Source: a virus. Taken from it: a stretch of DNA of 28,256 bases. Under the pieces are notes generated by a model. The model did no database searches and was not told the DNA's origin. It saw only the letters and a list, made by a program, of their open reading frames with translations. The stretch is taken from the IMG/VR virus record IMGVR_UViG_3300037245_003526, positions 216,297 to 244,552 of that record; one strand, given 5' to 3'. Positions 2,702 to 28,237 of the stretch are shown in pieces (the first letter of the stretch is position 1; each line of letters starts with the position of its first letter). The translations under genes and the position numbers were made by a program.

Positions 2702-2706
2702 TAGTA

Positions 2707-9286: not shown

Positions 9287-9297
9287 ATTAAAAAGGA
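9271..9297 (+). repeat. 27-nt exact repeat, also at 12624-12650
   Basis: ctatattatagaacaaattaaaaagga at 9271-9297 (upstream of the caspase gene) and again at 12624-12650 (3' end of 12405..12644, upstream of the histone-like gene). Confidence 0.7.
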
Positions 9298-9307
9298 GGT
9301 ATTTATT

Positions 9308-10246
9308 ATGGGATGTAAATGTTTAGAAAAAATACAATCATTATTTTCTGGTTGGAATCCATATCCATATGTACCTGGACAAGATGATAATATTATTCTT
9401 GACCCAATACCTGAACCTACTCCTGACCCAATACCTGAACCTATTATTGAACCTGTAAAGAAAGCAGTATTGGTTGGTATAAATATTTATCCAGCTCATA
9501 TGGATGCTAATTTAAGTGGATGTGTAAATGATGTTACGAATATGAGAAATTTATTGGTTTATACGTATGGATTTGATCCTGATAACATTAGAGTTCTAAA
9601 TGATGATCGTGCTACTAAAGCTAAAATTTTTGAAAGGTTAACATGGTTAATGAATTCTAATGAAGGTGATGAATTAGTATTTCATTATAGTGGTCATGGT
9701 AGTCAAGTAAGAGATAGAAATGGCGATGAACTAGATGATGGTTTAGATGAAATATTAATACCATACGACCATGATTGGGATGCTCCATTATTAGATGATC
9801 AAATAGCTGAAATATTTAAAACACAACCTGAAGGAACTAATCTCACAATGATTGCTGATTGCTGTCACAGTGGTTCTGTTTCTAGAGATATATCTAAAAA
9901 GAAGAAAAAAATTAGATTCCTTACACCACCATTTGATATCAGAAATAGAAGTCTTGATAAAGACTTATTATTAAGAAAAATTGGAGTTAAACCAAAAGGG
10001 ACTCAAAGACATATTCTTGCATCAGGTTGTAAAGATCATCAAACCTCAGCAGATGCATATATAGGATCAACATGGCAAGGTGCTTTTACATACGCTTTAA
10101 CTTCAGCTTTAAAAACAAATTCTAATCAATCTTGGACTTCAGCAATTGAAAAATTAAGTAGTATATTAGAAGTAAAAGGTTTTGATCAAACACCTCAACT
10201 AAGCGGAGATGATCAAAATAAATTAGTTTTTGGCGGAGCTGTTTAA
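9308..10246 (+). CDS. caspase-family (peptidase C14, metacaspase-like) protease
   Basis: AAAAGGAGG RBS. Catalytic dyad contexts FHYSGHGSQ (His) and IADCCHSGS (Cys, the D-x-C-H-S-G metacaspase signature). Typical fold start VLVGINIY and C-terminal QLSGDDQNKLVFGG. N-terminal MGCKC followed by a Pro-rich linker DPIPEPTPDPIPEPIIEP encoded by an 18-nt direct repeat. Confidence 0.8.
   Translation: MGCKCLEKIQSLFSGWNPYPYVPGQDDNIILDPIPEPTPDPIPEPIIEPVKKAVLVGINIYPAHMDANLSGCVNDVTNMRNLLVYTYGFDPDNIRVLNDDRATKAKIFERLTWLMNSNEGDELVFHYSGHGSQVRDRNGDELDDGLDEILIPYDHDWDAPLLDDQIAEIFKTQPEGTNLTMIADCCHSGSVSRDISKKKKKIRFLTPPFDIRNRSLDKDLLLRKIGVKPKGTQRHILASGCKDHQTSADAYIGSTWQGAFTYALTSALKTNSNQSWTSAIEKLSSILEVKGFDQTPQLSGDDQNKLVFGGAV
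9401..9442 (+). repeat. 18-nt direct repeat (x2) encoding a Pro-rich linker in the caspase gene
   Basis: gacccaatacctgaacct at 9401-9418 and 9425-9442 (DPIPEP x2). Confidence 0.7.
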
Positions 10247-11801: not shown

Positions 11802-11918
11802 TTAATCATCGAAAAATTCTCCGATAATCTCAAATATAATTAGAATAGGATTCACTTTAAGTTTAAAACAAATCCCTATAATAAATAGTATAATTCCGCC
11901 GATTGTCCAACCTGTCAT
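11802..11918 (-). CDS. small hydrophobic peptide (38 aa) below the track cut-off
   Basis: Minus-strand ATG at 11918-11916 overlaps the TAA of 11918..12145 (TAATG). Translation MTGWTIGGIILFIIGICFKLKVNPILIIFEIIGEFFDD*. Its stop lies just before the RBS of 11592..11789. Single-TM-like. Confidence 0.35.
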   Translation of the reverse strand: MTGWTIGGIILFIIGICFKLKVNPILIIFEIIGEFFDD

Positions 11919-12145
11919 TAGAAGTCTCCTTTATCTGCAAAAGATTCAAGTGATTTTTTATTTCTTTTAAACTTCTTTGGCCATTTTCCATTTGCTATTA
12001 TATATGCAACTTGGGTTTTCAAACCCTCTTCTCCATTTCCATCAAAAGATTTCTCAAGGGCACCCAAATAAATTTTACCATGTCTTGTTAATGTAGCAGG
12101 TTCACATAACTTTTTAATTAACTTAATTACTTCAATTTTATTCAT
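11918..12145 (-). CDS. hypothetical protein (75 aa)
   Basis: AAGGAGGTGtaATG RBS. Confidence 0.5.
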   Translation of the reverse strand: MNKIEVIKLIKKLCEPATLTRHGKIYLGALEKSFDGNGEEGLKTQVAYIIANGKWPKKFKRNKKSLESFADKGDF

Positions 12146-12404
12146 TACACCTCCTTAATATTAAAATATTAAAAACAAATGAATCCTATCACTAAATAAT
12201 ATATATAGTAGTAGTGACTTTAAAATAGGGATTTTTATGTTTATTTTAGTAACATATTATTAAAGGAGGTTATTATTAATACTACAAAAGATAGAGATAT
12301 TTATTATCATTATAAATTTATCTTAGGAACCCATGGATCGGATAGAGCTATAGTTCTTACGTCAATCCTTTTTAATAAGGATGAAGGTATAGTCAAAAAA
12401 ATAT

Positions 12405-12644
12405 GTGAAGAAGGAGATAAGAAATATAATGAAAAAATCTAAAAAAAGAAAATTGAAAAAAAGAAAACAACAACCTAAAATAGTTACTCATCAAATAAAA
12501 AAACCTACCTTACTAGAAATAATAAAAAGAAAATTTAAACAATTCAAAGAAGATCATTTTATTATATACTCATTTTTAGATACTATAGTATATATGACTC
12601 TTATATATGGATCAATAGCACTACTATATTATAGAACAAATTAA
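12405..12644 (+). CDS. basic protein with C-terminal TM (79 aa)
   Basis: GAAGGAGA RBS. KKRKLKKRKQQPK N-terminus, hydrophobic C-terminus. Confidence 0.5.
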   Translation: MKKEIRNIMKKSKKRKLKKRKQQPKIVTHQIKKPTLLEIIKRKFKQFKEDHFIIYSFLDTIVYMTLIYGSIALLYYRTN

Positions 12645-12684
12645 AAAGGATTAATATTAACAATTCAAAATAGGAGTTATTGTA

Positions 12685-13227
12685 ATGAAACTTTATAAAA
12701 GTTATTTAGAGGATCCATCAGATAATATAGTAGAAGCAAAAGAAGATGAAATTGTATCAGAAGATGAGCTTTTAACAGAAGCTGAAATTCTTCCAGATCT
12801 ATTAGTTGATTGTCTTTTAGAATCAAATGAACTAACTGAGTTATTCTTAGATTACATTCAAGAAGCAGATGCAGATAAAAAAGAAACTAAAAAAGAGAAG
12901 TTTAAAAGATATCTTAAAACGGCCGGAAAAGCAGCACTTGTTGGCGCAGCAGGTTATGGTGCTTATACAGCAGCTACAAAAGCAAAGGCAGCTTATCCTG
13001 GAGCAAAAGCAGCAGCAACAAAGAAAGGTAAAGAAGTAAAAGTAGCAGCAGCAGCAACAAAGAAAAAAGTAGTAGCAACAGGTAAAGAAGCAGCAGCAAA
13101 AGTAAAAGCAGCAGCAAAAGAAATAAAAAGAAAAGGAAAATTAAAAGGTAAAGAATTAGTAGCAGCTTATCAATTACATCGCACAAAACCTCACGATGTT
13201 AAAATACCATATCGTCCAAAAGGTTAA
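12685..13227 (+). CDS. Lys/Ala-rich histone-H1-like protein, third member of the SYL.YIQ family
   Basis: TAGGAG RBS. Acidic N-terminal half with LFLDYIQEAD, then a C-terminal half AAKAKAAYPGAKAAATKKGKEVKVAAAATKKKVVATGKEAAAKVKAAAKEIKRKGK encoded by (GCA)n-rich DNA. Confidence 0.6.
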   Translation: MKLYKSYLEDPSDNIVEAKEDEIVSEDELLTEAEILPDLLVDCLLESNELTELFLDYIQEADADKKETKKEKFKRYLKTAGKAALVGAAGYGAYTAATKAKAAYPGAKAAATKKGKEVKVAAAATKKKVVATGKEAAAKVKAAAKEIKRKGKLKGKELVAAYQLHRTKPHDVKIPYRPKG

Positions 13228-13275: not shown

Positions 13276-13444
13276 AGTTCCTTCCCATGTAACACCCTAG
13301 TCTAAAACAAAATACTCCATTTATCAATATTACATTGTTATAAACCGTAAGATTTATTCTAATAATATCAGATAGTAACTAAATATAATTATTTCAAGAA
13401 TTTAGAACAAATAATAAATACTAATATTATATTGGAGGTTTATT

Positions 13445-14677
13445 ATGGGTAAAATTAAATATCCTGGTTTATGTGAGTTCGTTCAGGAAAAACTCAAACA
13501 GAAAAAAGATTCCACAGAGATATTTAATGAGGCATGTAGAACATTCAATTACAAAGATAGAATTAGTAGCTTCAGAAGATATGTAAATAATATAAAATAT
13601 AGACATAAAGATGATAGTCCAAATCAACCCTCAAATGATCAAACCATAAAAGAAAACTTACCAAAAGATGACGTATCAGAATTTCTTGATATTGTTTCGA
13701 AACAAAAAAATATAAGCATTATTGACATATGTAATGATCTTAATTGTTCACCACAAAGAATAGATAATTTAGTTTCCTATCATAGATCAAAAGGTTATGA
13801 TATCACCATTCATGAAGATATGGTTATGTTCTTTACAGACCTAGTATCATCAGTCGAACAAGTCCCTCAGATATCAGAAACCGAAATAACATTTGGTGTA
13901 GCATCCGACCTACACTTTGGATCCAAAGCAGCACAAATAACCGCTCTAAATGAGTTCTGTAATATATGTTCAAAAAGAGGAGTTAAACACATATTCAGTC
14001 CAGGTGATATTGTAGCAGGTTATAATGTATACCCTGGACAGCAATTCGATTTATATGCTTTATCAGCAGAAGAGCAAGAAGATTCAGTAATTAAAAATCT
14101 TCCAACCGGTGACTTTCAATGGTATATGTTAGGTGGTAATCATGATTATGCCTTTATTAAAAAGGGTGGTGGTCATAATCCTGTATTAGCAATAGCATCA
14201 AAAAGAGAAGATGTACATTATGTAGGTTTCGATGATGCTGATATACCTATACTTAATGGAGTAGAGCTTAAGCTGTGGCACCCTTCTGGAGGTGTGCCAT
14301 ATTCAGTATCTTATAGATTACAAAAAGGTGTAGAGCAAATATCATATAGCGAATTAAGAAGAATAATAAGCGGAGAAAAAATGGCACCAACAATTAGATT
14401 TGTACTGTCTGGTCATTTACATATTCAAGTACAAGCTATGATTGGATCAATATTCGGAATGCAATGTGGAGCATTTGAAGGTCAAACAAATTATCTAAAA
14501 CGTAAAGGTTTAGTACCTAATATTGGTGGATATATAGTTAATGCAGAATTAGGAAAAAATGGTCTTATTAAAAATTTCGATGCTAAATTTTATATGTTTG
14601 AAGATATAGAAGATGATTGGAGAAACTATAGTCATAGTATACCAAAACAAAAAATAGTTAAACCTATATTTGGATGA
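13445..14677 (+). CDS. calcineurin-like metallophosphoesterase with an N-terminal extension (410 aa)
   Basis: TGGAGG RBS. MPP motifs ASDLHFG (D-x-H), SPGDIVAG (GD), LGGNHDY (GNHD), LWHPSGG, and LSGHLHIQ (GH-x-H). Confidence 0.7.
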   Translation: MGKIKYPGLCEFVQEKLKQKKDSTEIFNEACRTFNYKDRISSFRRYVNNIKYRHKDDSPNQPSNDQTIKENLPKDDVSEFLDIVSKQKNISIIDICNDLNCSPQRIDNLVSYHRSKGYDITIHEDMVMFFTDLVSSVEQVPQISETEITFGVASDLHFGSKAAQITALNEFCNICSKRGVKHIFSPGDIVAGYNVYPGQQFDLYALSAEEQEDSVIKNLPTGDFQWYMLGGNHDYAFIKKGGGHNPVLAIASKREDVHYVGFDDADIPILNGVELKLWHPSGGVPYSVSYRLQKGVEQISYSELRRIISGEKMAPTIRFVLSGHLHIQVQAMIGSIFGMQCGAFEGQTNYLKRKGLVPNIGGYIVNAELGKNGLIKNFDAKFYMFEDIEDDWRNYSHSIPKQKIVKPIFG

Positions 14678-15441
14678 AAACTGAAAAATATTATATTTAT
14701 GCATATTTAGATCCAACAAAAAAAGGTAATTTTAAATATACGATTGAAGGAAAAATATTTATATTTGAATTTGAACCTTTTTATATTGGAAGAGGAACAA
14801 AAAATAGACTATTGGATCATTTAAAGTTACATCCTTTAGATAAAAATTATTTTAAAAAGAATAAAATTAAAAAAATAAAAAAATTAAATATAGAACCAAT
14901 AATAGTCAAGGTAAAGTTTTTACCTGATAAAATAAAAGCTAACTTATTAGAAAAAGAATTTATTAGTGTTATTGGTAGAAGAGATTTGAATCTAGGACCC
15001 TTAACAAATCTTACTGATGGGGGAGATGGAACTTATGGTTATAAACCTTCTGAAGAAGCAAAAAGAAACTGGAAAAAATCTATAAAAAAATTTTATGATG
15101 TAAAAGAAAATAGAGATAGAATGGGTTACTATAGTACAATTGAAGGAATGATTGAAAAATATGGAATAGTTGAGGGAGAAAAAAAGTATAAAGAAAGAAT
15201 AAGAAAGATGAAGAAGTCGATTAATAAAACATATAGTGATCCAAAAATAAGAAAAAAATGCTCAAATAAAGGTTCTAAAAATGGAATGTTTGGTATTACC
15301 CCACCTCATGCAAAAAAAGTTTTAGTTATGGAAGTTTTTTATAACTCCATTGCAGAAGCTTCTAAACATACTAAAGTTCCGTATACCACATTATCTCAAA
15401 GGTTAAATAGTAAAAATTTTTCAGAATATAAATATTTATAA
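14674..15441 (+). CDS. GIY-YIG homing endonuclease
   Basis: Overlaps the preceding stop (ATGA) and has a weak RBS, as is typical of free-standing HEGs. N-terminus YIYAYLDP...PFYIGRGTKNRLLDH carries GIY and YIG motifs with conserved R/H. The C-terminus has a NUMOD-like HTH (GMFG..PHAKKVL..EVFYNSIAEASKHTKVPYTTLSQRLNS). Confidence 0.8.
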   Translation: MKTEKYYIYAYLDPTKKGNFKYTIEGKIFIFEFEPFYIGRGTKNRLLDHLKLHPLDKNYFKKNKIKKIKKLNIEPIIVKVKFLPDKIKANLLEKEFISVIGRRDLNLGPLTNLTDGGDGTYGYKPSEEAKRNWKKSIKKFYDVKENRDRMGYYSTIEGMIEKYGIVEGEKKYKERIRKMKKSINKTYSDPKIRKKCSNKGSKNGMFGITPPHAKKVLVMEVFYNSIAEASKHTKVPYTTLSQRLNSKNFSEYKYL

Positions 15442-16946: not shown

Positions 16947-17228
16947 TTACCCTCCTCCTGATAAAGTCTTTTTTAATTCCTCCTTTGTTATGGGAATGAT
17001 CATTGTTTGATGAGTAAAAATTGGAATCTTCTTTACAAGTCCACCACACTTCTCGATAGCATTAAGCATTTCAACAATATGATCATTTCTATGTTCAATA
17101 ATTATATTTCCATACTTAATTATTCCCCATATACGTTTATGCTCATTTTCAACTTTAGTGCCTTTTGGAAAATGTTTTATTATATCTTCAAGTACCAAAC
17201 CCTCTACATATACTATTCCACTATTCAT
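16947..17228 (-). CDS. hypothetical protein (93 aa)
   Basis: TAGGAGATTATAatg RBS. Its C-terminal ...SGGG is encoded by the downstream gene's SD. Confidence 0.5.
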   Translation of the reverse strand: MNSGIVYVEGLVLEDIIKHFPKGTKVENEHKRIWGIIKYGNIIIEHRNDHIVEMLNAIEKCGGLVKKIPIFTHQTMIIPITKEELKKTLSGGG

Positions 17229-17324
17229 ATTATAATCTCCTATTCAGTAGTAAAATTTCAATGAAAAACCTATCCATTATTTAATATATATATTCAACCT
17301 TTACCAAAATGAATAAAAAGAAAA

Positions 17325-17355
17325 CAAAAAAAAGGGGTTGCTAGTCCCTTTTTTT
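17325..17355 (-). terminator. terminator hairpin downstream of 17365..17778
   Basis: A8-GGGG-ttgctagt-CCC-T8 on the plus strand. On the minus strand this reads as a hairpin followed by a U-run. Confidence 0.45.
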
Positions 17356-17364
17356 TATTCTTTT

Positions 17365-18228: not shown

Positions 18229-18332
18229 CTTGTCCTCCTTTTATTTAAAAATTTAATCCAAATACTCCATTAACTCAAATTATAATATATATAACAAATA
18301 CTATTATATTGGATTAAATTTTCTTAAGCTCT

Positions 18333-18798: not shown

Positions 18799-19101
18799 CT
18801 ATAAACTCCATGATTTTTCCGGATCTTTTTTTCCATTCATTCCTGAACAGATCATCCATGCTTTACCTTTTTCAAGATTTTTAATGGTTATAGGACCTGG
18901 TTTTTTACTTATTTTTTCCTCATATAAGTGACTACATTTTACCTTATGTAAGGTATCTTTAAATAAATTAACCATAAAATTATATGCATCTTCTGATATA
19001 TATGCACATATATAAACTTTTTCCTCAATATCTGAAAAAGAAGGATACCATTTTACAGTAAAAATCTGCATTACTTTATTCTTAGTATTGTCATTTTCCA
19101 T
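18799..19101 (-). CDS. hypothetical protein (100 aa)
   Basis: AAAGGAGcataaaaaATG RBS. Confidence 0.5.
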   Translation of the reverse strand: MENDNTKNKVMQIFTVKWYPSFSDIEEKVYICAYISEDAYNFMVNLFKDTLHKVKCSHLYEEKISKKPGPITIKNLEKGKAWMICSGMNGKKDPEKSWSL

Positions 19102-19177
19102 TTTTTATGCTCCTTTGTAATTAAAATAATATATAATAATTTCCAATTTTAAGAACATATTAAAAAAGGAGAATCAA

Positions 19178-19363
19178 ATGAGTGAAACTACTAATGAAAA
19201 GAAAATTGAACTTATAGAATTTAGTATAGATATGCCAAATGAAATATTCGATTTCCTAGTTAAATTTGGTCTTGAAAAAATAAAAGAAGATAAAGAAGAA
19301 CTTGCTAATTATGCCTTGAATATTATACTTAAAGATGCAGTCAAAAATCTAAAAATAGAATAA
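19178..19363 (+). CDS. small acidic protein (61 aa), lone plus-strand gene
   Basis: AAAAGGAGAatcaaATG. Ribbon-helix-helix-like pattern (KKIELIEFSIDMPNEIFDFL...). Weak. Confidence 0.4.
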   Translation: MSETTNEKKIELIEFSIDMPNEIFDFLVKFGLEKIKEDKEELANYALNIILKDAVKNLKIE

Positions 19364-19414
19364 TAACCCTTCCTTAGTTAGTAATATATTTAGTAGTCAT
19401 TATTATATTGGAAC

Positions 19415-19444
19415 AAAAAAAGAGGGTTGCCATACCTCTCTTTT
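19415..19444. terminator. bidirectional terminator between convergent genes
   Basis: A7-GAGGG-ttgccata-CCTCTC-T4, preceded by the conserved ATTATATTGGAACAA block. Confidence 0.5.
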
Positions 19445-19459
19445 CCCGTATTGGTTATA

Positions 19460-20128
19460 TCACCACCTATTCCCACCACCTTTTGCCTTTTTTAATTTAA
19501 CATCTTTAAAAAGTTTGTTATTCCCTTTAGTACAATAAAGGAAATGAAACACCGGGAAATCAACAGTATCTATCTTTTTATAGTAACCTTTTCTAATAAG
19601 AGTTCCTGCTGGACTTTTTTCATGATATTTAGCAACCAAACCTTTAATGGATGTCTTACGGAACCCATATTTTTCATATAAAAAGTCTGCAATATCATCC
19701 GTTGAAAAAACCTTATCTGCAAAGGGACCATTAATACATTTTATTATATGATCCATCGCACTTCCAATCCTTACAGTTCCAGGTTTTACACCTATCTTTC
19801 TGCTAACATAAATTACCGATCCGTTTCCCGTTACCCTTTCTAATTTTACTTTTTTAAAAAGATTGAAATTACCCTTGAGACAATAAAGATAATGAAAAGT
19901 TTTAATACCATTTTTTGCCTTCTTTTTCTTATAGAAAGCTTTCCGAAGTAAGATACCAGGATCGTCATTATATAACTTCGTGACTTCGCTCCTAATTGAA
20001 TCTTCAGCATAACCATATTTTTCGTATAAAAACATAGAAACATCTGCCGTCGAAAATACTTTTTTTGCAAATGGACCATTAACACATTTGATTATATGAT
20101 CCATTTGACTACCCTCTCTTATTTCCAT
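19460..20128 (-). CDS. protein made of two tandem ~105-aa homologous halves
   Basis: AAAGGAGatgaataATG. Half 1 MDHIIKCVNGPFAKKVFSTADVSMFLYEKYGY...FHYLYCLKGNFNLFKKVKL. Half 2 MDHIIKCINGPFADKVFSTDDIADFLYEKYGF...FHFLYCTKGNNKLFKDVKL. Confidence 0.6.
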   Translation of the reverse strand: MEIREGSQMDHIIKCVNGPFAKKVFSTADVSMFLYEKYGYAEDSIRSEVTKLYNDDPGILLRKAFYKKKKAKNGIKTFHYLYCLKGNFNLFKKVKLERVTGNGSVIYVSRKIGVKPGTVRIGSAMDHIIKCINGPFADKVFSTDDIADFLYEKYGFRKTSIKGLVAKYHEKSPAGTLIRKGYYKKIDTVDFPVFHFLYCTKGNNKLFKDVKLKKAKGGGNRW

Positions 20129-20154
20129 TATTCATCTCCTTTCTTTTTATTTAA

Positions 20155-20793
20155 TTAATCAAGATCCTCCTTATTAACATCAATATCTTTCCATTCCAAA
20201 TCATATTTTTCAAGTAAAAATGATAGAATAGTAAAAAAGTTATGATCAAGACTAATTAATACATCCTGTGGATTTTTATCAGGGTTATCCTCTAAACATT
20301 TTTCTACCGTTTCATTAAAATGTTCACTAATGTGAATTCCAGTGTCCTCATTTTTTTCAACAATCCATGTATCATATTCCTCATTATAAAGAATCTCAGG
20401 GGTATGAAAGTGTAAACTAAATTGGGTACGTGGATCGTTATCAGGATTTTTAACTTTATCAAATGCCAGCGTCATGACACTGTTTTCCTCTATAGCGTTT
20501 TTATATTGACCAAGTTCATCATCAATAACTTCTCTTAATTCACTTTCAACTACGTCACCAATACCCTCTTTAATCTTCTTTATCAAAACATCTACTTTAT
20601 TCAATTCGGTAGTTTTATCTTCCTGTTCCGATCTTTTTTCCATTACAAATAATCCTTCATCTAAATACTTGGCCATCTCTTCAAGCCTAGTATCAGGATA
20701 AGTTATCTTATTAAACTCAAGCTGACCATCCAAATCAATAGTCAGTGCAAGTAATCCATCAGGTTGTATGAATATTCTACGTATCACTTTCAT
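20155..20793 (-). CDS. strongly acidic protein (212 aa)
   Basis: Long ORF, D/E-rich throughout. Confidence 0.55.
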   Translation of the reverse strand: MKVIRRIFIQPDGLLALTIDLDGQLEFNKITYPDTRLEEMAKYLDEGLFVMEKRSEQEDKTTELNKVDVLIKKIKEGIGDVVESELREVIDDELGQYKNAIEENSVMTLAFDKVKNPDNDPRTQFSLHFHTPEILYNEEYDTWIVEKNEDTGIHISEHFNETVEKCLEDNPDKNPQDVLISLDHNFFTILSFLLEKYDLEWKDIDVNKEDLD

Positions 20794-21166
20794 TATGAAG
20801 AATACCTTTCTTTAAGTTGTTAATGGCAGTATGTACTGAATTTTCTTCATCCAATATTTTTTCGGATGCTTTTATGTTCTTTTCCAATACCTCTAAATTT
20901 ATAATATTACCAGCATCAGAACCGTATATTTCCATTGAATATTTTACGACATCCATAATATTTAATGCCTCATTCAACTCATTAAAACCGAATTCATACA
21001 TTCCTATATTTCCTGTGAGGTCTTCCTTCAAAAATTTCAGTCCGTCTTTAGCTTTAGAAAAAGCTTCCTCGTCTTCAAAAGCACTAAATAATTCCTGCTG
21101 CTCTTCTTCATTTAACTTCAACTCAAAGTCTTTCAGAATCCTTACAAAATTAATGTATGCCGTCAT
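20777..21166 (-). CDS. hypothetical acidic protein (129 aa)
   Basis: GAAAGGTGAtaaaaaATG. Confidence 0.5.
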   Translation of the reverse strand: MTAYINFVRILKDFELKLNEEEQQELFSAFEDEEAFSKAKDGLKFLKEDLTGNIGMYEFGFNELNEALNIMDVVKYSMEIYGSDAGNIINLEVLEKNIKASEKILDEENSVHTAINNLKKGILHNESDT

Positions 21167-21214
21167 TTTTTATCACCTTTCTTTTTTAAGCTATCAATTT
21201 ATAACACTTTGTCT

Positions 21215-21532
21215 TCATTTCATCCTCCCAACCTTCTTAAGTACCTTATCAAGTCTGTCCTGTACCTCTTTTAAAGATTTCTTTATATTACCAATCTCTT
21301 TCTCCATAAATTTAGCAACATAATAACCTATGTAATTAGAAGTGATTACACGGAGAATTAAAGCAATTTCGTTTTCAGCAATACCAACTACACCATAACG
21401 GTATTCTATTATTTTACCTATAATATCAGGGTCAGAAGCCTTAAGCATTTCATATAATATTTTAATATCATAGTCAGAAATTTTGTCAGTTATCTCCTTC
21501 CCTGCCTCTTCAAATTTATCTAAATCAAACAT
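21215..21532 (-). CDS. hypothetical protein (105 aa)
   Basis: AAAGGAGAatatataATG. Confidence 0.5.
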   Translation of the reverse strand: MFDLDKFEEAGKEITDKISDYDIKILYEMLKASDPDIIGKIIEYRYGVVGIAENEIALILRVITSNYIGYYVAKFMEKEIGNIKKSLKEVQDRLDKVLKKVGRMK

Positions 21533-21545
21533 TATATATTCTCCT

Positions 21546-21980
21546 TTATTTTTTTAGTAAATCATTTATTTTACCTGATAATGGTTCTATTAAATTAATT
21601 GCTTCATGAGTAGTACCACCAAATTCCTCATTCCATTTAAGGGGAGTTTGAATAATAATACGATAAGGAGTCTTAAATCCAACTAATGTCATGATCAATT
21701 GCATTACTTTATCACTGGGTAATTGACCTTTTTCATGAACACTTACAGATAAATGTTTGCACATACATGGAGGTTGTTGTTCATGTGTATATGTAATACA
21801 TACTTGCTCATCATTTATAACTACATAAATAGTAAAGTCTTCATTCACTCCTCCAGGAGATGCTTCACCTTTAGTTAAAGCTTCCATAGTCTCTAATGAG
21901 GTTGGATTTTCAGTAGCATGTTTTATTATTCGCTCAATCTCATCCATAAAGTTTCCAGACGTAATAAATATTTCACCCAT
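21546..21980 (-). CDS. hypothetical protein (144 aa)
   Basis: AAGGAAAGGAtttaaaATG. Confidence 0.5.
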   Translation of the reverse strand: MGEIFITSGNFMDEIERIIKHATENPTSLETMEALTKGEASPGGVNEDFTIYVVINDEQVCITYTHEQQPPCMCKHLSVSVHEKGQLPSDKVMQLIMTLVGFKTPYRIIIQTPLKWNEEFGGTTHEAINLIEPLSGKINDLLKK

Positions 21981-21994
21981 TTTAAATCCTTTCC

Positions 21995-22351
21995 TTATTT
22001 ATCAAGTCCTATTAATTTGCGTCGCAAGTCTTCCATCAGATTAGAAGGTAAACGAAGTTCTAATAAATCTAATATTTTTAAGATATCACTAAATAAAAAT
22101 GAACCTTTCCCGTTTTCTTTTTTTGAATAATTGGACCTATCCATTTTTATATACCCAGCAATATCATCCTGTTTTAAGTTTGCTAATTTCCTAGCTACCT
22201 TAATAAAGGACGGAACCGTTAAAGGATCTCTCCATGTTATATATTTAGATTTTTCAGTACCGTTAATAATTTTATCTATCTGATTTAAATTTAAAAATGA
22301 TGAGATATCATCATGTTCAATAATTATAATCCTAAATTTATTGTCACTCAT
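21995..22351 (-). CDS. XRE-type helix-turn-helix regulator, first gene of a transcription unit
   Basis: AAGGAGctaaaATG. HTH signature VARKLANLKQDDIAGYIKMDRSNYSKKENGK. Confidence 0.6.
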   Translation of the reverse strand: MSDNKFRIIIIEHDDISSFLNLNQIDKIINGTEKSKYITWRDPLTVPSFIKVARKLANLKQDDIAGYIKMDRSNYSKKENGKGSFLFSDILKILDLLELRLPSNLMEDLRRKLIGLDK

Positions 22352-22402
22352 TTTAGCTCCTTATATTTTTAGTAATGTATATTCTCAACGAATACTCGTA
22401 TC

Positions 22403-22443
22403 ACTTAATAATATATATAGCATCCGTCATTATATTGGAACAA
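22403..22443 (-). promoter_or_regulatory. promoter cassette immediately downstream of a terminator (TTGTTC-N18-TATATATATTATTAAG)
   Basis: On the minus strand: T7-GTTCCAATATAATgacggatgcTATATATATTATTAAG. Near-identical cassettes occur at 24158-24196 and 26862-26900. Confidence 0.4.
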
Positions 22444-22474
22444 AAAAAGAGGTAGACTAATCCTCTCCTTTTTA
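22442..22474 (-). terminator. terminator hairpin (A7-AGAGG-tagactaat-CCTCT-T5)
   Basis: Follows the stop of 22485..23123. Loop sequence tagactaat is identical to the hairpin at 26899-26928. Confidence 0.5.
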
Positions 22475-22484
22475 CTATGTTCGT

Positions 22485-23123
22485 CTAATTTATTTTGCCT
22501 CTATCAGTTGGAATCTCAAGTTTGTTAAGCACATTGTCAAAATTTCCATGTACTGATGAACCACTCTCTAAAATTTCTCCTCTTTCCTTTTTACATTTTT
22601 CGCAGGGGCAACTTTTAGGTACTATATTCTTTAATAAATCTCCAACCATTTCTACAATTTTTGAATCTTCTATAGGTAGTGGAGGATTATCATCTATTAT
22701 TTTTTTAATAACTAAACGATTATCCTCATTCCAGGGAGATACATATTGTTCAAATGGAACATTGAATGCCCATTGTGTATCTTCTATATAGGTTTCCCCG
22801 CCCGGCGTAATGTCTTTCATACCAATCTTTATAGCATTCTTTCCATCCGATTCAGTGTATACCATAGCTAATGTATGTGTAGTTTCCGATATAAATAATA
22901 CCAAATCCGTTTTAACTTTGTAAGATATTATAGATACAAAATCACCTGCCTCTTTCCTCATAGCAGGATCATGGACTGGAAGAACGTTTACATCAACTTC
23001 CTCGTTTTCCATTTTTTTGACCAATATAAACAAAGAAGGTCTGTATTCCTTATTTATGTTATTAATAGCTTCACTAAAAATTTCATCAGCAATCTCCTTA
23101 AACTTCATTTTAAATTCTTCCAT
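22485..23123 (-). CDS. paralogue A of a duplicated 212-aa protein family with a C-terminal Cys cluster
   Basis: AGGGGAAttaaaATG. About 60% identical to 23468..24106. The C-terminal CPCEKCKKERGEILESGSSVHGNFDNVLNKLEIP is near-identical to its paralogue. Confidence 0.65.
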   Translation of the reverse strand: MEEFKMKFKEIADEIFSEAINNINKEYRPSLFILVKKMENEEVDVNVLPVHDPAMRKEAGDFVSIISYKVKTDLVLFISETTHTLAMVYTESDGKNAIKIGMKDITPGGETYIEDTQWAFNVPFEQYVSPWNEDNRLVIKKIIDDNPPLPIEDSKIVEMVGDLLKNIVPKSCPCEKCKKERGEILESGSSVHGNFDNVLNKLEIPTDRGKIN

Positions 23124-23145
23124 TTTAATTCCCCTTTATTAGAAT

Positions 23146-23424
23146 TTATTTTATTTTTTTTTGTTTCAGTATATTTTTTGTAAAAATTATCTTAGAATTC
23201 TTTATAGCTTCATCAAGAATTTCCTCAATCTCCTTACGTTTCTCAGCATTCAAGCCTGGATGTTTTTCCATTATCTCTATAAATTCTGACCTGAATCCAC
23301 CCAATATATTACCAGTATATCTCACCATACTTTTTTTATATTCTCTAGTAAGATATTCATCATTATTATTTTTACTCTTTCTTCTATTAAATCTATCATT
23401 CCATTGTTTAGTAGACCTGTTCAT
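23146..23424 (-). CDS. basic hypothetical protein (92 aa) between the two paralogues
   Basis: GAAGGTGActaactaATG. Confidence 0.5.
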   Translation of the reverse strand: MNRSTKQWNDRFNRRKSKNNNDEYLTREYKKSMVRYTGNILGGFRSEFIEIMEKHPGLNAEKRKEIEEILDEAIKNSKIIFTKNILKQKKIK

Positions 23425-23467
23425 TAGTTAGTCACCTTCAATAGTTTGCATATTTCAGTTTCCTATT

Positions 23468-24106
23468 TTAATTTATTTTGTTTTTATCATTAGGAATCTC
23501 AAGTTTGTTAAGCACATTGTCAAAATTTCCATGTACTGATGCTCCACTTTCTAAAATTTCTCCTCTTTCCCTTCTACATTTTTCGCATTGACAATGGTTA
23601 GATGCTAAATTCTTTAATACATCTCCAACTATTTCCATAATTTCTGAATCTCCTATGGGATCTGGAGGAGGATTATCCTTTATCAACTGTTCGATAAATA
23701 AACGATTTTCCTCATTCCAGGGTGATACATATTGTTCAAATGGAGAATTGAATTCCCAGGTTGAATCTCCTACATATATTCCTTCTGGTTTATTGTATTT
23801 AGTACCAAACTTTAGAGCACTCTTTCCGTCCGATTCGGTGTACGACATATACAATGTATTTTCAGTTTCCCATATGAATAATATCAAATCCTTTTTATTT
23901 TTGTAAGATATTATAGATACAAAATTACCTGCCTCTTTTCTTTTAGCAGGATCATATACAGGAATAATGTCTACATCACTTTCCCCGTTTTTCAAATCTT
24001 TGACCAATATGAAAAGAGAAGGTCTTTCTTTCTCGTTTATATTATTACAAGCTTCACTAAAAATCTCATCAGCAATCTTAATAAACTTCATATCAAATTT
24101 TTCCAT
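23468..24106 (-). CDS. paralogue B of the duplicated 212-aa family
   Basis: GGGGGaaaaATG. C-terminal CQCEKCRRERGEILESGASVHGNFDNVLNKLEIP. Confidence 0.65.
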   Translation of the reverse strand: MEKFDMKFIKIADEIFSEACNNINEKERPSLFILVKDLKNGESDVDIIPVYDPAKRKEAGNFVSIISYKNKKDLILFIWETENTLYMSYTESDGKSALKFGTKYNKPEGIYVGDSTWEFNSPFEQYVSPWNEENRLFIEQLIKDNPPPDPIGDSEIMEIVGDVLKNLASNHCQCEKCRRERGEILESGASVHGNFDNVLNKLEIPNDKNKIN

Positions 24107-24157
24107 TTTTCCCCCAATTATTTAAATTTATTTAAAACAAATATTCCTAGTCTTATA

Positions 24158-24196
24158 ACTTAATATATATAGATTCCTTTTATAATATTGGAACAA
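24158..24196 (-). promoter_or_regulatory. promoter cassette downstream of a terminator (TTGTTC-N19-TATATATATTAAGTTATAAGACTAGG)
   Basis: Conserved block shared with 26862-26900, including the 5'-leader-like GTTATAAGACTAGG(A/G)ATATTT. Confidence 0.4.
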
Positions 24197-24242
24197 AAAA
24201 GAAGGTTGGAAGACTGTTCGTTTATAGAACAATCTCCCAACC
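24195..24242 (-). terminator. terminator: 16-bp stem hairpin
   Basis: GGTTGGAAGACTGTTC-gtttata-GAACAATCTCCCAACC. The two plus-strand mismatches become G-U wobbles in the minus-strand RNA. A U-run follows on the minus strand. Confidence 0.55.
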
Positions 24243-24256
24243 TAATTAGGGTGGTA

Positions 24257-25093
24257 CTAAAATAATTCAGAATGGTTGTTAAAATATTGGGCAAATGCAT
24301 TATATCCGTTTTTATTTAACCATGTATTACTAGGAATTTTACCTCCGTTTTCCTTTATTAATTTCTCAGCAGTTTTTATATGATCTTTATGAGTTGCTCT
24401 CAATGAGACCTTTTTCAAATGACTAAATGATTCAGGATTTCTATACATACAACCGTAAAGATTACCATACCCGTTATTTTTCAACCATGTTGGATTAGGA
24501 ACTTTACCTCCGTTTTTCTTTGCTAATTTCTCAGCAGTTTTTACATAATCTTCCTTCTTTACAAAAGAATTATCTTGTTTTAAATGACTGAACACCTTAC
24601 GATGTTTCGTAAAATAACTGGAAAGAGGCATATACCCATTGTTTTCCAACCATGTAAAAGAGGGAACTTTACCTCCATTTTTCTTTGCTAATTTCTCAGC
24701 AGTTTTGATATGTTTTTCACGAGATATAAAAAAATTTTCTTGTTTTAAATTAGTGAATAACTCAGGGTGATTTATAAGATATTGAGCAAATGCACCATAT
24801 CCTTTTTTTATTAACCATGAATGACTAGGAATCTTATCATTATTATTTTTAGCTAATTTAGCAGCAGTTTCAATATGTACTTCAGAAGCTAGAACTAATT
24901 TTTCTTGCTCTAAATGATCAAATAATTCAGGAAGTCTCATAATACAACCTCCAAGAGCAATATAACCGTTTTCCGATAACCATTTAAAAGTGGGAATTTT
25001 ACCTCCATTTTCCTTTGCTAATTTCTCAGCAGTTTTCACATGATCTTCATTTATAATTCTTAAACTTCTAGAAAATATTTCCCTAAACTCTTT
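24257..25093 (-). repeat. five tandem ~165-nt coding repeats in the helicase 3' end
   Basis: Recurrent block (t)tacctccgtttt(c/t)ctttgctaatttctcagcagttt at about 24340, 24505, 24670, 24830 and 25000. Confidence 0.7.
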
Positions 25094-26800
25094 AAATGTC
25101 TCAATTCCTAATTGGTCAGTTCCAAAAACTAGTAATTTATCAAATATTTTATTCTCCCATATCTTATCAAATCCTGCCTCCAACATAAAGGATATATCCA
25201 AACCCTTCTTATATCCTGGGTCTTTAGAATCAGTTATTATAGAATCCCTCCTTAACATTTTAGCTATGTGTATAGTAATATCATCAATCATCTCCTTCCT
25301 TATATTAAAATTATTTAAAACAGTTTTAATAGTTTCTTTAGAATCGTCTAATGTAGGTTCACCTTTTGATTCTTTCAAAAATATTAATTCCATAATAATA
25401 TTATCCATAATATCCTGTCTTATTCCTTCATTTGAAACTTCTTCAATAAAACAATTATAAGTCCTGGTACCATTTTTTTTATTACCTCTACCTCTCTTTA
25501 TATAAGGTATTGGTTCAATAGTTTCCCGTAAAAGTAACGATGCTGTAAAAGCATTATAGCTATTACTAAGATGTGATCTTCGATCCACTTCGATATTATA
25601 TTTTGAAATATATGGTAAAAAAACATTATAACCTATATGAGTCTTTTTAGGAAGATCCCTCCATAGTCTCCCGTGTCTTTGTCCTAAAACCCTTAATGAG
25701 TTAGATGGTGCAAGATCCAATATCTGCTCAGCATATAACCAGTCAGAACCTTCATCAAAAATTTTCAAAGCAAGTATGATGTCAATATTCCCTGCTTTTT
25801 TATTATCAAAAATTATTTTCTTTTTCTCGTCCCTGTTGTTAGTAGTAATTAAGTCCATTATATTGCAGTCAGACCAAACCTCCCTTATTATGGAAATAAG
25901 TCGGTCCCTAAATATATATTTGTCAATTCCATTCAAAAGATTACCTACGTAAGGACAATATATAACATACTTCTTTTTACCAAATTTAGTTATTACCTCC
26001 TTTACCGAATCAAAAATGTCAGTATATGTAACAAAATTAAATTCAAATGACTTAATGTGTTTAATGTTCTCTTCCCAGTGTCGGTCTAATGGTAAAAAAT
26101 GATAAGTAAATTTCGAAATAACTTCTTCTGGTAATATTAATCCCCGGTCTCCTCTAAAAAATGTAGCAGTTGGAAGCCATATAGATGTAGTAGGATCGTC
26201 AAATGTAGTTAACTCCCTTATAAGTTTACCTATCATATTACATGAATCACTTTCTTCAGTTTCAGGAAATAATATGTGGTGAGCTTCATCAATTACCAAT
26301 GTAGTGTTACTGAATAATTCCCCAATAAATTTACCATAATGTTGAATTATCCTCGACATGTTAGCATGTGTAGTTATTAAAATTCTATCAGATATTTCTT
26401 TATCATTAGAAGATTTCTTTCCTTTTAGAAAATCCTCTAAAAATTTTACCTTTCTTCCAAGGTTTATTCCATTGCATAAATCATGGCCAATTGCCCAATC
26501 TAATTCAGCACCATCAGTATATCGTAAATTGATATCTTTAAAGGATTTTATTATTAGCGTTTGTGGTATGCATATTATTAACTTGTGTTCATTGTCCCTA
26601 TGTAACCTCTTTGCCATTACAAACTTAATAGTCGTACTCTTACCTGAACCCGGAGGTTCGTTCATTATAAAGTATCTCTCGTCAGAATAATTAGTAAGTA
26701 TGTAGTCCTGATGTTTTCTAATTGTATGTGTACCTTCGTTACCAATTGATAGTTTACCTTTTCGTTTTTGTTTTGTAGCTATGAATGAGTTCTTTATCAT
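24257..26800 (-). CDS. superfamily-2 DEAH-box helicase/ATPase with five C-terminal ~55-aa tandem repeats (helicase-associated-like)
   Basis: GGAGGaaatATG. Walker A NEPPGSGKSTT, motif II VIDEAHHI, TAT motif LPTATFF, motif VI GQRHGRLWR. C-terminal repeats (H/Y)(I/V)KTAEKLAKKNGGK(V/I)P..TWL..NGY... x5, visible as ~165-nt DNA tandem repeats. Confidence 0.8.
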   Translation of the reverse strand: MIKNSFIATKQKRKGKLSIGNEGTHTIRKHQDYILTNYSDERYFIMNEPPGSGKSTTIKFVMAKRLHRDNEHKLIICIPQTLIIKSFKDINLRYTDGAELDWAIGHDLCNGINLGRKVKFLEDFLKGKKSSNDKEISDRILITTHANMSRIIQHYGKFIGELFSNTTLVIDEAHHILFPETEESDSCNMIGKLIRELTTFDDPTTSIWLPTATFFRGDRGLILPEEVISKFTYHFLPLDRHWEENIKHIKSFEFNFVTYTDIFDSVKEVITKFGKKKYVIYCPYVGNLLNGIDKYIFRDRLISIIREVWSDCNIMDLITTNNRDEKKKIIFDNKKAGNIDIILALKIFDEGSDWLYAEQILDLAPSNSLRVLGQRHGRLWRDLPKKTHIGYNVFLPYISKYNIEVDRRSHLSNSYNAFTASLLLRETIEPIPYIKRGRGNKKNGTRTYNCFIEEVSNEGIRQDIMDNIIMELIFLKESKGEPTLDDSKETIKTVLNNFNIRKEMIDDITIHIAKMLRRDSIITDSKDPGYKKGLDISFMLEAGFDKIWENKIFDKLLVFGTDQLGIETFKEFREIFSRSLRIINEDHVKTAEKLAKENGGKIPTFKWLSENGYIALGGCIMRLPELFDHLEQEKLVLASEVHIETAAKLAKNNNDKIPSHSWLIKKGYGAFAQYLINHPELFTNLKQENFFISREKHIKTAEKLAKKNGGKVPSFTWLENNGYMPLSSYFTKHRKVFSHLKQDNSFVKKEDYVKTAEKLAKKNGGKVPNPTWLKNNGYGNLYGCMYRNPESFSHLKKVSLRATHKDHIKTAEKLIKENGGKIPSNTWLNKNGYNAFAQYFNNHSELF

Positions 26801-26861
26801 ATTTCCTCCATATATATTTAAATTAAATTAAATGTTAAAAATAAATATCCCTAGTCTTATA

Positions 26862-26900
26862 ACTTAATATATATAGTATCAATCATTAAAATTGGAACAA
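26862..26900 (-). promoter_or_regulatory. promoter cassette for the helicase transcription unit
   Basis: Minus strand: T7-GTTCCAATTTTAATgattgatacTATATATATTAAGTTATAAGACTAGGGATATTT. Confidence 0.4.
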
Positions 26901-26928
26901 AAAAAGAGGTAGACTAATCCCCTTTTTT
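26899..26928 (-). terminator. terminator hairpin after 26939..28237
   Basis: A7-GAGG-tagactaat-CCCC-T6. The stem is weak because it is AT-rich. Confidence 0.4.
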
Positions 26929-26938
26929 CGTAAATACT

Positions 26939-28237
26939 TTATGGGTGAATAATTTTAAACCGAGTAGTTCCTATTGTTATATTTTCCTCTCCCCTTAAAT
27001 GTTTAGGAATGTTTGTGAAGTCAGTTCCTTCCCCTACCCTCCTTTGATGACTTCTTACCCAGTGTTTAATATATCTTAAACGACCTGTCTGTGTCACGGG
27101 AGCATCTCTAGCATAAAATAAAGATTTAATTTGCTCATAGTCAACTGAAAATGTGCATTTACTCTTCCCTTCCAAAGCTATTATTTTCCACATTTCCTTC
27201 TCACGAATCATTTCGTCGCAGTCTAGCATAATTGACGCCATTCTGCATGATTTTTGTAGTTCTATATGTGTTAGCTTTGTCATAGTTTTGTTTTGAAAGT
27301 CTTCAGGAAGTTCATACAAACCATTATTTTTTCCATTTAAAGCTTTTGTAAAACTCATTGGAAAAATAGGACCTATTAAATTGTTTCTAAAATCAATACG
27401 AAGTGGAATCTTATAACCAAATATTCCACCCTCGTCTCTATAAGCAAGCTTGTATAGAGCATAGGGTCTAGACCAGTTATTCCATAACTCAGGTATTGTA
27501 CCTAAATCCTTATGTGGAGAAGGTTCAGGTTTTAAATAATACATATAAGTGTTTGCCGTCCTGTATGTTATGTAATCAGCTGCAGATCCTTGTAACCCTA
27601 GTTTTTCAGTCATATTTTTAGCAGCTGAATCCTCTACTCCCTTATCCTGATTGCCAGATACAGATACAGATATAACCCCAGTTGGCCTATCATAATCAGC
27701 AAGAAATATAGCAGCATGGTCCTCTGTAAATCTATCACTTACATCCTCGTCCTGAAATGGAGATCTCCTGTTGTCACTCTTAGAGTAGTTCATAAATGGA
27801 GTAAAGTAGGGTCCAATCTTTTTCAAAAAGTTGAATTGATTAGGTTTTATTCTGAATAATTTATCGTACCCTTCTTTACATGTCATCTTTTCTAAAAAAG
27901 CTATTAATGTAGTCTCAACCACATCAGAAAAATGATCATCATCCCACCAATCAATCATTCTCCTTTCCTTTTTTTCCTTCATAGATATAGTAATCTTTTC
28001 CCATTCACCATTTGTAGATTTCCACTTACCGCGTAAAGACCAAGGATTCTTCCAATATAATTGAAGTGTGTGGTCTGTACCTGTTAACCTTACTCCTTCA
28101 TCTCCTTTGTCATTACCTTCTAGTATTAAACTAGAAAATATAATAGTAATTATATTTGTTGAATTATCCTTATTATATTCCCCTTGATATGTGCTTATTT
28201 TTTCGTTGTAATTATGTATGGTTATTCTAGCTTTCAT
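26939..28237 (-). CDS. hypothetical protein (432 aa)
   Basis: AAGGGAGtacttaATG. Long uninterrupted ORF, Trp/Tyr-rich, no recognised motif. Confidence 0.6.
   Translation of the reverse strand: MKARITIHNYNEKISTYQGEYNKDNSTNIITIIFSSLILEGNDKGDEGVRLTGTDHTLQLYWKNPWSLRGKWKSTNGEWEKITISMKEKKERRMIDWWDDDHFSDVVETTLIAFLEKMTCKEGYDKLFRIKPNQFNFLKKIGPYFTPFMNYSKSDNRRSPFQDEDVSDRFTEDHAAIFLADYDRPTGVISVSVSGNQDKGVEDSAAKNMTEKLGLQGSAADYITYRTANTYMYYLKPEPSPHKDLGTIPELWNNWSRPYALYKLAYRDEGGIFGYKIPLRIDFRNNLIGPIFPMSFTKALNGKNNGLYELPEDFQNKTMTKLTHIELQKSCRMASIMLDCDEMIREKEMWKIIALEGKSKCTFSVDYEQIKSLFYARDAPVTQTGRLRYIKHWVRSHQRRVGEGTDFTNIPKHLRGEENITIGTTRFKIIHP

Follow-up and report, generated by a model that had tools for sequence, protein, structure and literature searches.

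The window analysed here is a stretch of 28,256 nucleotides (nt; positions 216,297 to 244,552) of the viral record IMGVR_UViG_3300037245_003526. It is an accessory region, rich in ORFans, of an uncultured jumbo myovirus with a genome of about 245 kb; 10.4% of this single 28-kb window is intergenic. Its minus-strand genes are partitioned by four copies of a cassette in which a predicted intrinsic terminator is followed by a conserved AT-rich motif (class A), and its plus-strand genes are preceded by a second motif (class B). The anatomy and statistics of the cassettes, the folding asymmetry of their hairpins and the conservation of both motifs in related phages are observed directly. We consider it probable, on balance, that each cassette joins a terminator to a class A promoter and that the invariant block between the two, T6-7GTTCCAAT, includes an upstream element specific to the cassettes. 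The terminator would end one early unit, with the class A promoter of the next unit lying within about 40 nt, and class A would drive the minus-strand (early-type) units and class B the plus-strand (late-type) units. From these observed features we infer promoter activity, the temporal classes, the kind of polymerase or factor that would read the motifs and the role of GTTCCAAT.

Anatomy of the cassettes

An earlier note on this DNA had described a recurrent terminator and promoter cassette in the leftward region, and all four places that it named bear this out. The stretches 19380-19449, 22403-22472, 24158-24243 and 26862-26931 share one layout on the minus strand: a hairpin with a U-tract, T6-7GTTCCAAT, a spacer and a class A core. 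In the three full copies the spacer is AT-rich and 14-15 nt long and is followed by (C)TATATATATT(AAGT), a leader of about 50 nt, a strong Shine-Dalgarno sequence and an ATG; these copies serve a helicase gene (ATG 26800), a gene for a 212-aa protein (24106) and a helix-turn-helix (HTH) gene (22351).

Cassette 1 (26931->26862) reads AAAAAAGGGGATTAGTCTACCTC-T7-GTTCCAAT-N15-TATATATATTAAGT. Its predicted terminator, a hairpin with a U7 tail at 26897-26931, ends the 432-aa gene 26939-28237 (-13.1 kcal/mol in the minus sense against -6.3 in the plus sense; z = -3.4). The block T7-GTTCCAAT at 26891-26905, which is ATTGGAAC-A7 on the plus strand and identical in all four cassettes, is followed by the class A core CTATATATATTAAGT at 26862-26876, 75 nt before the helicase ATG. 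Cassette 2 (24243->24158) consists of a 17-bp hairpin and T6-GTTCCAAT-N15-TATATATATTAAGT. The hairpin at 24203-24243 ends the helicase gene 24257-26800 (-26.2 versus -19.7 kcal/mol; z = -6.5) and has a U6 tail in the minus sense only, with no T-run on the plus strand; the block T6-GTTCCAAT lies at 24187-24200 and the core CTATATATATTAAGT at 24158-24172, 65 nt before ATG 24106. Cassette 3 (22472->22403; AAAAAGGAGAGGATTAGTCTACCTC-T7-GTTCCAAT-N14-TATATATATTATTAAGT) has a terminator at 22442-22472 that ends gene 22485-23123 (-10.3 versus -6.9 kcal/mol) and carries the same loop, ATTAGTCTA, as cassette 1; its block T7-GTTCCAAT is at 22434-22448 and its core CTATATATATTATTAAGT at 22403-22420, 68 nt before the ATG of the HTH gene. 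Cassette 4 (19449->19380; hairpin-T7-GTTCCAAT-N10-CTAAATATATTAC) lies between the convergent genes 19460-20128 (-) and 19178-19363 (+), with a terminator at 19413-19449 (-15.3 versus -11.4 kcal/mol; z = -3.0), the block T7-GTTCCAAT at 19407-19421 and a near-consensus core, CTAAATATATTACT, at 19380-19393. This copy had been credited with a terminator and a block only; it also contains the promoter motif, as TAAATATATT at 19383-19392, which matches the class A decamer at nine of ten positions. The next minus-strand start is at 19101, about 290 nt further on, beyond a 61-aa open reading frame (ORF) of the plus strand.

Each hairpin directly follows a minus-strand stop codon and is in turn followed by a U-rich tract, as expected of intrinsic terminators. 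Folded in both senses, the hairpins are stabler as minus-sense RNA (-10.3 to -26.2 against -6.3 to -19.7 kcal/mol), and since they fold better in this sense and adjoin minus-strand stops, they are predicted to be intrinsic terminators of the leftward units. The format A7-hairpin-T5 given previously describes three copies; the hairpin at 24203-24243 departs from it in its longer stem, its A6 and its lack of a plus-strand T-run. Nor is there a gap of about 5 nt between terminator and block, the T-run abutting GTTCC with 0 nt. An extension of the terminator stem by pairing of the GTTC after the U-tract with an upstream GAAC was considered and rejected, being possible only at 22482 and inconsistent across copies.

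The repeats are far more frequent than expected from composition. The window holds four copies of TTTGTTCCAAT against 0.07 expected and eight of TATATATATT against 1-2 expected, and all eight of the latter lie in the small intergenic part. With at most one mismatch, ATTGGAACAAA has six matches, all on the plus strand, against 2.0 expected, a number reached in none of 100 shuffles. The most repeated 10-mers of the window include fragments of the block (TTATATTGGA, TTGGAACAAA and ATTATATTGG) and of class A (ATATATATAG).

The conserved part is sharply delimited: 14 contiguous bases are identical in four of four cassettes, the spacers are only about 50% identical and the hairpins are of three unrelated types. 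Other parts are shared in pairs, namely the hairpin loop by the cassettes with blocks at 22434 and 26891, and a leader of about 40 nt by those at 24187 and 26891. The conserved leader reported for two of the three full copies is indeed present at 26843-26863 (GTTATAAGACTAGGGATATTT) and 24139-24159. The shared loop, the shared leader, the divergent spacers and a pair of 69% identical paralogous genes nearby are consistent with cassette-mediated shuffling, in which the cassettes would be paralogous and their parts reshuffled by recombination inside the conserved core.

The paralogs are the 212-aa ORFan genes 22485-23123 and 23468-24106 (both minus strand), which are separated by a 92-aa gene and bracketed by the cassettes with blocks at 24187 and 22434; with a further 212-aa gene (20155-20793) and the 222-aa gene 19460-20128 they share only 19-26% identity. 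The leader motif GTTATAAGACTAGG(G/A)ATATTT, found at 24139-24159 and 26843-26863 in the 212-aa and helicase units, has a partial third copy at 13297-13310, and on the minus strand AGACTAGGG is likewise present at 13303, a place without a minus-strand gene. Its AGACTA is complementary to the loop TAGTCT of the hairpins 22442-22472 and 26897-26931, and its AAGACT to an AGTCTT in the stem of 24203-24243; the motif may be an RNA-RNA or protein-binding element.

Two proposed promoter classes and their conservation in related phages

The earlier note had treated TTGTTC...TATATATAT and the plus-strand GAACAAAT as one element with a fixed genomic orientation. They are better read as two promoter classes: TATATATATT sites are always oriented with minus-strand genes and GAACA-AtAAA sites always with plus-strand genes, except for the four cassette blocks, and in related phages each motif occurs on either strand, following its gene. 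In the window every plus-strand gene uses class B and every minus-strand gene class A, so that motif orientation follows gene direction.

Class A (acTATATATATTAAt) has 9-10 copies in the window, all intergenic, in minus-gene orientation and 54-75 nt before a Shine-Dalgarno sequence and ATG, and it precedes every minus-strand unit. The alignment of 19 sites from four phages gives ..ttac-TATATATATT-AATtA, with a purine-rich start region after acTATATATATTAAt and no conserved -35 element. In the class A subfamily to which the cassettes belong, TCCAAT/TTCnA stands 15-17 nt ahead of TATATATATT. The partition of the leftward region into transcription units, previously put at three or more, stands, and the count was low, as class A also occurs at 18284-18293, 17283-17292, 12198-12207, 9254-9263 and 7734-7743 and, weakly, at 19126-19135. 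The site at 17283-17292 belongs to a fifth terminator and class A unit (17283-17356, minus strand), composed of a hairpin at 17326-17356, T8-GTTTTC and TATATATATT, 64 nt before ATG 17228. The stretch 18284-18313 (minus strand) has neither terminator nor GAACA, and its class A core stands 65 nt before ATG 18228; at 18303-18313 it has TCCAATATAAT at the same distance from class A as in the cassettes, with GGATT instead of GGAAC. The other minus-strand sites serve genes 11918-12145 (12198-12207), 8702-9205 (9254-9263, back-to-back with the class B site 9281), 7426-7689 (7734-7743, back-to-back at 5 nt with the class B site 7749) and 18799-19101 (the weak site TATATATTAT at 19126-19135, back-to-back with the class B site 19153). 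From their gene content (helicase, HTH protein, many ORFans) the class A units would be early.

Class B (A/G-GAACA-aAa-AtAAA) has eight copies in the window, 25-51 nt before plus-strand ATGs. Across 21 sites from four phages its consensus is tA-GAACA-aAa.AtAAA, that is, an invariant GAACA (AACA in 21 of 21), 3-4 nt and a T/A-A-T/A-AAA box. Plus-strand blocks had been noticed before the genes at 2834, 9308, 12685 and 13445, and these are confirmed; GAACA blocks also precede those at 5002, 6125, 7775 and 19178. In order along the plus strand, the site 2785 (TATATTTGGAACAAATAACCAAT, 2775-2800) follows a terminator at 2705-2745 and lies 49 nt before ATG 2834; 4959 (4949-4975) lies inside the preceding ORF, 43 nt before ATG 5002; 6076 (6066-6092) is a class B-like site 49 nt before ATG 6125; 7749 (GAACATATATAAAAGGAG, 7739-7765) is 26 nt before an ATG at 7775; 9281 (TATATTATAGAACAAATTAAAAAGGAGG, 9270-9297) is 27 nt before ATG 9308; 12634 (12623-12650) carries the same 21-mer as 9281, 51 nt before ATG 12685; 13405 (13395-13421) precedes the gene of an Mre11-like Metallophos protein (13445); and 19153 (19143-19170) is 25 nt before ATG 19178. 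A class B variant, GTAACATATTATTAAAGGAGG, at 12254-12290 on the plus strand is followed by a strong Shine-Dalgarno sequence and no standard start codon; it may point to a short gene missing from the annotation or to a non-canonical start ahead of ORF 12405-12644.

GGAG or GGA comes straight after the box at six class B sites, which belong to three phages (window 7749, 9281 and 19153; L125 3533; L127 20439 and 17937). Because a ribosome-binding site must be transcribed, transcription would begin within about 10 nt of GAACA, probably 8-10 nt after it, which would place GAACA at about -10. Class B would be a late, or at least non-early, class, judging from the virion genes that it precedes in related phages.

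The helicase of the window is identical to a protein on a metagenomic contig of 244,552 bp, which marks the source as a jumbo phage. The distant relatives compared here are represented by three loci, L002, L125 and L127. Their helicases are the nearest found (37-47% identical; 47% for L002), and the Mre11-like Metallophos protein of the window is 63% identical to its L002 ortholog, with a class B site before both genes. L002 encodes T4_baseplate and gp25 proteins and has a sheath gene; L125, on a 304-kb contig, encodes a Gp23 major capsid protein, Portal_T4 and Peptidase_S77; and L127, on a 154-kb contig, has a sheath gene and a response-regulator/PAS protein. Judged from these genes, the relatives are most readily classed as T4-type jumbo myoviruses.

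Class A, as a 12-15-mer, has four copies in L002, one in L125 and five in L127, always in gene orientation. It precedes the helicase operon in four of four phages, and terminator and class A units recur in all three relatives, where the copy before the helicase operon again follows a terminator. The class B sites of L002 stand before two PHROG virion-protein genes, a baseplate block and the Metallophos ortholog. The motifs of the relatives lie on whichever strand carries the gene, six of six L002 class B sites being on the minus strand, and both motifs are kept across phages of 25-39% GC. This bears out the suggestion that they are phage-specific regulatory motifs. That the promoters are not ordinary sigma-70 promoters also agrees with a scan for TTGACA-like and TATAAT-like hexamers 16-18 nt apart: matches in the window were not enriched over shuffles (70 observed versus 76.7, and 82 versus 93.3), and no class A or class B site was among them.

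The distance between neighbouring class A and class B sites is 5, 17, 17 and 42 nt in the window, 4, ~42 and ~43 nt in L002 and ~1 and ~22 nt in L127, which also has one face-to-face pair. Measured from TATATATA to TGTTC it varies among ~1-6, 18-22 and 42-47 nt, and TGTTC is thus not a general -35 element of class A. The TTGTTC-N17-TATATATAT promoter formerly assigned to gene 8702-9205 dissolves in the same way: its TTGTTC at 9286 belongs to the divergent promoter of gene 9308, read on the opposite strand, beside the class A site 9254-9263. In the pairs 5320/5363, 9670/9712 and 14291/14295 of L002 and 20439/20461 and 21355/21356 of L127, together with those of the window, the distances cluster at ~1-6, 18-22 and 42-47 nt. 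Successive clusters are about two helical turns apart; this pattern, seen post hoc in a small sample, hints at a face-of-helix constraint between divergent promoters.

A T-run followed within 2-3 nt by ATCAAT (L002 9925-9947, L127 ~17100-17125) or TCCAAT (the window cassettes and 18303-18313) occurs in several of these phages, at differing distances from class A, and may be a shared feature downstream of terminators or chance. In L002, a GC-rich stretch of about 220 nt at 9712-9950 (plus strand), bounded by a class A site and a strong terminator, immediately precedes the helicase promoter. Its folding energy is -92 kcal/mol (z = -4.9 versus shuffles), with no ORF called and no Rfam match, and is a candidate phage non-coding RNA.

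Function of the invariant block

It is in the four cassettes alone that GGAACAAA faces away from every gene. For T6-7GTTCCAAT we favour a composite reading, in which the block would be the U-tract of the terminator plus an upstream element of one class A subfamily. The stretch 18303-18313, which keeps TCCAATATAAT without GAACA and without a terminator, speaks for such an upstream element.

The principal alternative is that the GGAACAAA core of the cassettes is a genuine class B promoter or factor-binding site. Once late transcription begins, RNA polymerase or the factor bound there would transcribe antisense towards the 3' end of the early gene upstream, cover the -35 region of the neighbouring class A promoter, or do both, and a single site would thereby turn early units off while late units are turned on. 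A comparable case is protein p4 of phage phi29, which acts where early and late promoters diverge. A class B weight matrix, trained on the eight gene-associated window sites and scored over 56,454 positions, ranks the four blocks 9, 10, 12 and 15, all on the plus strand, as the best matches outside its training set; most of this score comes from GAACA and the A-run, however, and the A-run is the terminator U-tract, whereas, scored separately, the upstream flank ranks 993-5161 and the downstream box 1452-3844 of ~56,490 (top 2-9%). TTATATT-GGAACAAA differs little from TTATATTTGGAACAAA, the sequence of the gene-associated site 2785, but the cassettes have AaGAG where the clade has AtAAA and miss two positions that are at least 80% conserved. 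The distance from GAACA to TATATATATT is 17-19 nt in the four cassettes as in the divergent pairs 9263/9281 and 19135/19153, and the block is invariant between diverged flanks. Seven late promoters of phage AR9 drive antisense transcripts (PMC5312081). A plus-strand transcript from the cassettes would nevertheless start at the foot of the hairpin, with T4-6 following the hairpin in three of four and no plus-strand ORF after it; the plus-strand ORFs downstream of the cassettes (e.g. 22495-22791) were rejected as genes, having no Shine-Dalgarno sequence and being antisense to clear genes. Moreover, 18303-18313 has TCCAATATAAT without GAACA, and the terminator and class A units of L002, L125 and L127 lack the GAACA core. 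Taken together, we regard this explanation as unlikely, though by no means negligible. Its fullest form is more doubtful still: the cores would be sites of the class B (late) machinery laid over early promoters, a single 15-bp site would silence an early unit, through occlusion or through antisense transcription running head-on across the terminator, just as the late genes come on, and a clade with T4-type structural genes might, by analogy with AR9, use phage-specified recognition throughout and not host sigma-70. No new kind of mechanism is called for unless the cassette GAACA core is such a late-machinery site.

A simpler proposal makes TTGTTC (or GTTCCA) the -35 and TATATA/TATATT the -10 of a host sigma-70-type early promoter, the cassette being an ordinary terminator with a host promoter. 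GTTCCA stands 16-17 nt from TATATA in the three full cassettes, a TTC-containing hexamer occurs 15-17 nt upstream of about eight of ten window class A sites, and the region upstream of class A is T-rich. Such a T-rich region is expected of -10-dominated promoters in AT-rich hosts. Use of the host RNA polymerase is, in addition, normal for the early genes of T4-type phages (PMC2988021, PMC2839356). We nevertheless find this improbable. TTGTTC agrees with TTGACA at only three of six positions, the sigma-70 scan passes none of these sites, and the 19 class A sites have no -35 in common; the 12-15 contiguous conserved bases, some of them downstream of the hexamer, exceed what a sigma-70 -10 requires, and they are conserved across phages of such different GC content, probably of different hosts. 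A DNA-level polar signal set by the genome and not by the genes (replication, packaging or recombination, Chi- or KOPS-like) was suggested by GAACAAA, which occurs 15 times on the plus strand of the window and never on the minus strand. GAACA[AT]A, however, is divided 18:6, its minus-strand counts match Markov expectation (3 versus 2.3-2.6, and 3 versus 3.8-5.0), and its plus-strand excess consists of the gene-associated sites, 25-51 nt upstream of plus-strand starts, and the four cassettes. The bias agrees with the composition of the coding strand together with the promoter sites, and no such signal is needed; no strand bias independent of gene orientation was found, and in the relatives the motif follows the gene strand, as in the six minus-strand sites of L002. 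We hold this account very improbable, and no less so the idea that the block is functionless and the cassettes are recent duplicates homogenized by recombination or gene conversion: the neighbouring 212-aa genes are indeed paralogous and cassette parts are shared in mosaic fashion, but 14 identical bases amid three unrelated hairpin types and spacers of ~50% identity are hard to explain without selection or a functional recombination core.

Several points weigh against the composite reading that we favour, in addition to the high matrix ranks of the four blocks. Six of nine window class A promoters have TGTTC 17-19 nt upstream, a greater regularity than two unrelated promoters would lead one to expect. 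Promoter and terminator activity and temporal class are drawn from position and conservation. Membership of the clade rests on two proteins, the helicase and the Metallophos protein; the window has no T4 hallmark gene, and the T4-type genes of the relatives lie on contigs other than that of the window.

Gene content and comparison with known systems

The window encodes an endolysin, a PfkB kinase, a receiver-PAS protein, a caspase-like peptidase and a GIY-YIG endonuclease among many ORFans. Unusual cargo on the plus strand comprises the protein with receiver and PAS domains (1859-2701), which also occurs in L127 (8016-8939), the PfkB-family sugar kinase (2834-3709) and the caspase-like Peptidase_C14 (9308-10246). 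At 13445-15441 (plus strand) the Metallophos gene overlaps by 4 nt the gene of a GIY-YIG/I-TevI-type homing endonuclease downstream of it; the L002 ortholog has no such neighbour. Gene 12685-13227 (plus strand) codes for a 180-aa protein with an acidic N-terminal half and a Lys/Ala-rich, histone H1-like C-terminal half, with no family match. Rfam and tRNA scans of the window found nothing.

Searches for further relatives were negative. A megablast of 19000-27000 against GenBank phages gave no match, and tblastn of the helicase and the Metallophos protein reached only ~26-29% identity, to unrelated phages. Nothing was found in IMG/VR in a search for related loci and for two cassette patterns, one of which had a wrong fixed gap. 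A metagenome scan with TTTGTTCCAATN{13,16}TATATATA was too loose, giving at least 120 single chance matches (L005-L124), and a multi-motif screen of these loci found none related. A search of the phage promoter literature for TATATATATT found nothing relevant.

Compared with T4 late promoters, TATAAATA, which are read by gp55/gp33/gp45 in an early/middle/late programme (PMC2988021), the presumed late class of the window is likewise a short AT-rich box without a -35, in units segregated by strand and class. The second box of class B equals TATAAATA exactly at L002 18199 and matches it at 5-8 of 8 positions over the sites. The most conserved part of class B is however the GAACA upstream of the box, whereas in T4 TATAAATA at -13 to -6 is the sole determinant, and with a start 6-7 nt past the box, as in T4, the transcript would lack the ribosome-binding site in the six promoters where GGAG or GGA abuts the box.

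Phages of the AR9/phiKZ type have early promoters AAATATATATTAT-(6N)-G read by a virion RNA polymerase and late promoters AACA-(6N)-TA/G read by a non-virion one, with AACA at -11 to -8, T at -1 and A/G at +1 in AR9 (PMC5312081, PMC7598289). ATATATATTA is common to class A and the AR9 early consensus, and class A likewise has an extended conserved AT-rich box (at least 10 nt, centred near the predicted -10) without a -35; in class B, the invariant AACA lies ~8-10 nt before the probable start and is then followed by T-A. Divergent early/late pairs in intergenic regions are a further likeness, and some AR9 late promoters are antisense. Still, AACA and TA are 5 nt apart in class B as opposed to 6 in AR9, and no multisubunit phage RNA polymerase gene, nor any RNA polymerase domain, was detected in the window or in about 90 kb of the relatives' loci; a giant ORF of L002/L003 (>1467 aa), considered as a polymerase, was rejected, having no Pfam, PHROG or PDB match. 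The relatives also have T4-type head and baseplate genes (Gp23, Portal_T4, Peptidase_S77, T4_baseplate) and not phiKZ-type ones. We regard the similarity to AR9 as a resemblance only.

The hairpins themselves do not differ from known intrinsic terminators, with a stem-loop and U6-8, and three of them, with an opposite A-tract, could work bidirectionally; the invariant GTTCCAAT after the U-tract lies outside the terminator paradigm.

Judged by their layout, the cassettes appear closest to the promoter-early stem-loop (PeSL) cassettes of the T4-type phages RB49/phi1, PST/T4 and nt-1/KVP40 (PMC2839356, PMC4122927), and their parts are mosaic. Like PeSLs, they are short intergenic units of an early promoter and a terminator stem-loop that end in a Shine-Dalgarno sequence and ATG, each of which would insulate a small transcription unit, and five units of the window have this make-up (26862-26931, 24158-24243, 22403-22472, 19380-19449 and 17283-17356). 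The many repeats among ORFans in a plastic region are a further shared trait, seen within the 28 kb examined, where most genes flanking the cassettes have no family match. Conserved cores, mosaic flanks and neighbouring duplicated genes are as expected of recombination between cassettes. There are also differences: PeSL promoters match the E. coli sigma-70 -35 and -10, while the promoter of the window is a 12-15-nt AT-rich motif without a conserved -35; the PeSL stem-loop often lies between or over the promoter boxes, while the hairpin of the window is always upstream and has a U-tract; and the invariant GTTCCAAT between hairpin and promoter is found only in the window cassettes. Recombination through cassettes, with indels between relatives and with mini-circles, is a trait of the PeSLs; for the window the evidence is indirect, namely the mosaic sharing of hairpin and leader and the 69% identical paralogs.

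If this comparison holds, the cassettes would insulate and re-initiate transcription gene group by gene group, as PeSLs do in T4-type phages, and the PeSL idea of insulators that double as recombination cores would extend to a lineage whose early promoters are not of the sigma-70 consensus. The motifs would provide a transcription map for an uncultured jumbo-phage clade without a cultured relative. Motifs and terminators can be searched for in metagenomic contigs, where they would help to tell early from late genes, to place operon boundaries and to point out plastic regions in which cassette-mediated gene shuffling is likely. PeSL-like logic was already known; what is new is its probable occurrence, together with conserved non-sigma-70 promoter classes, in this clade of uncultured jumbo phages.

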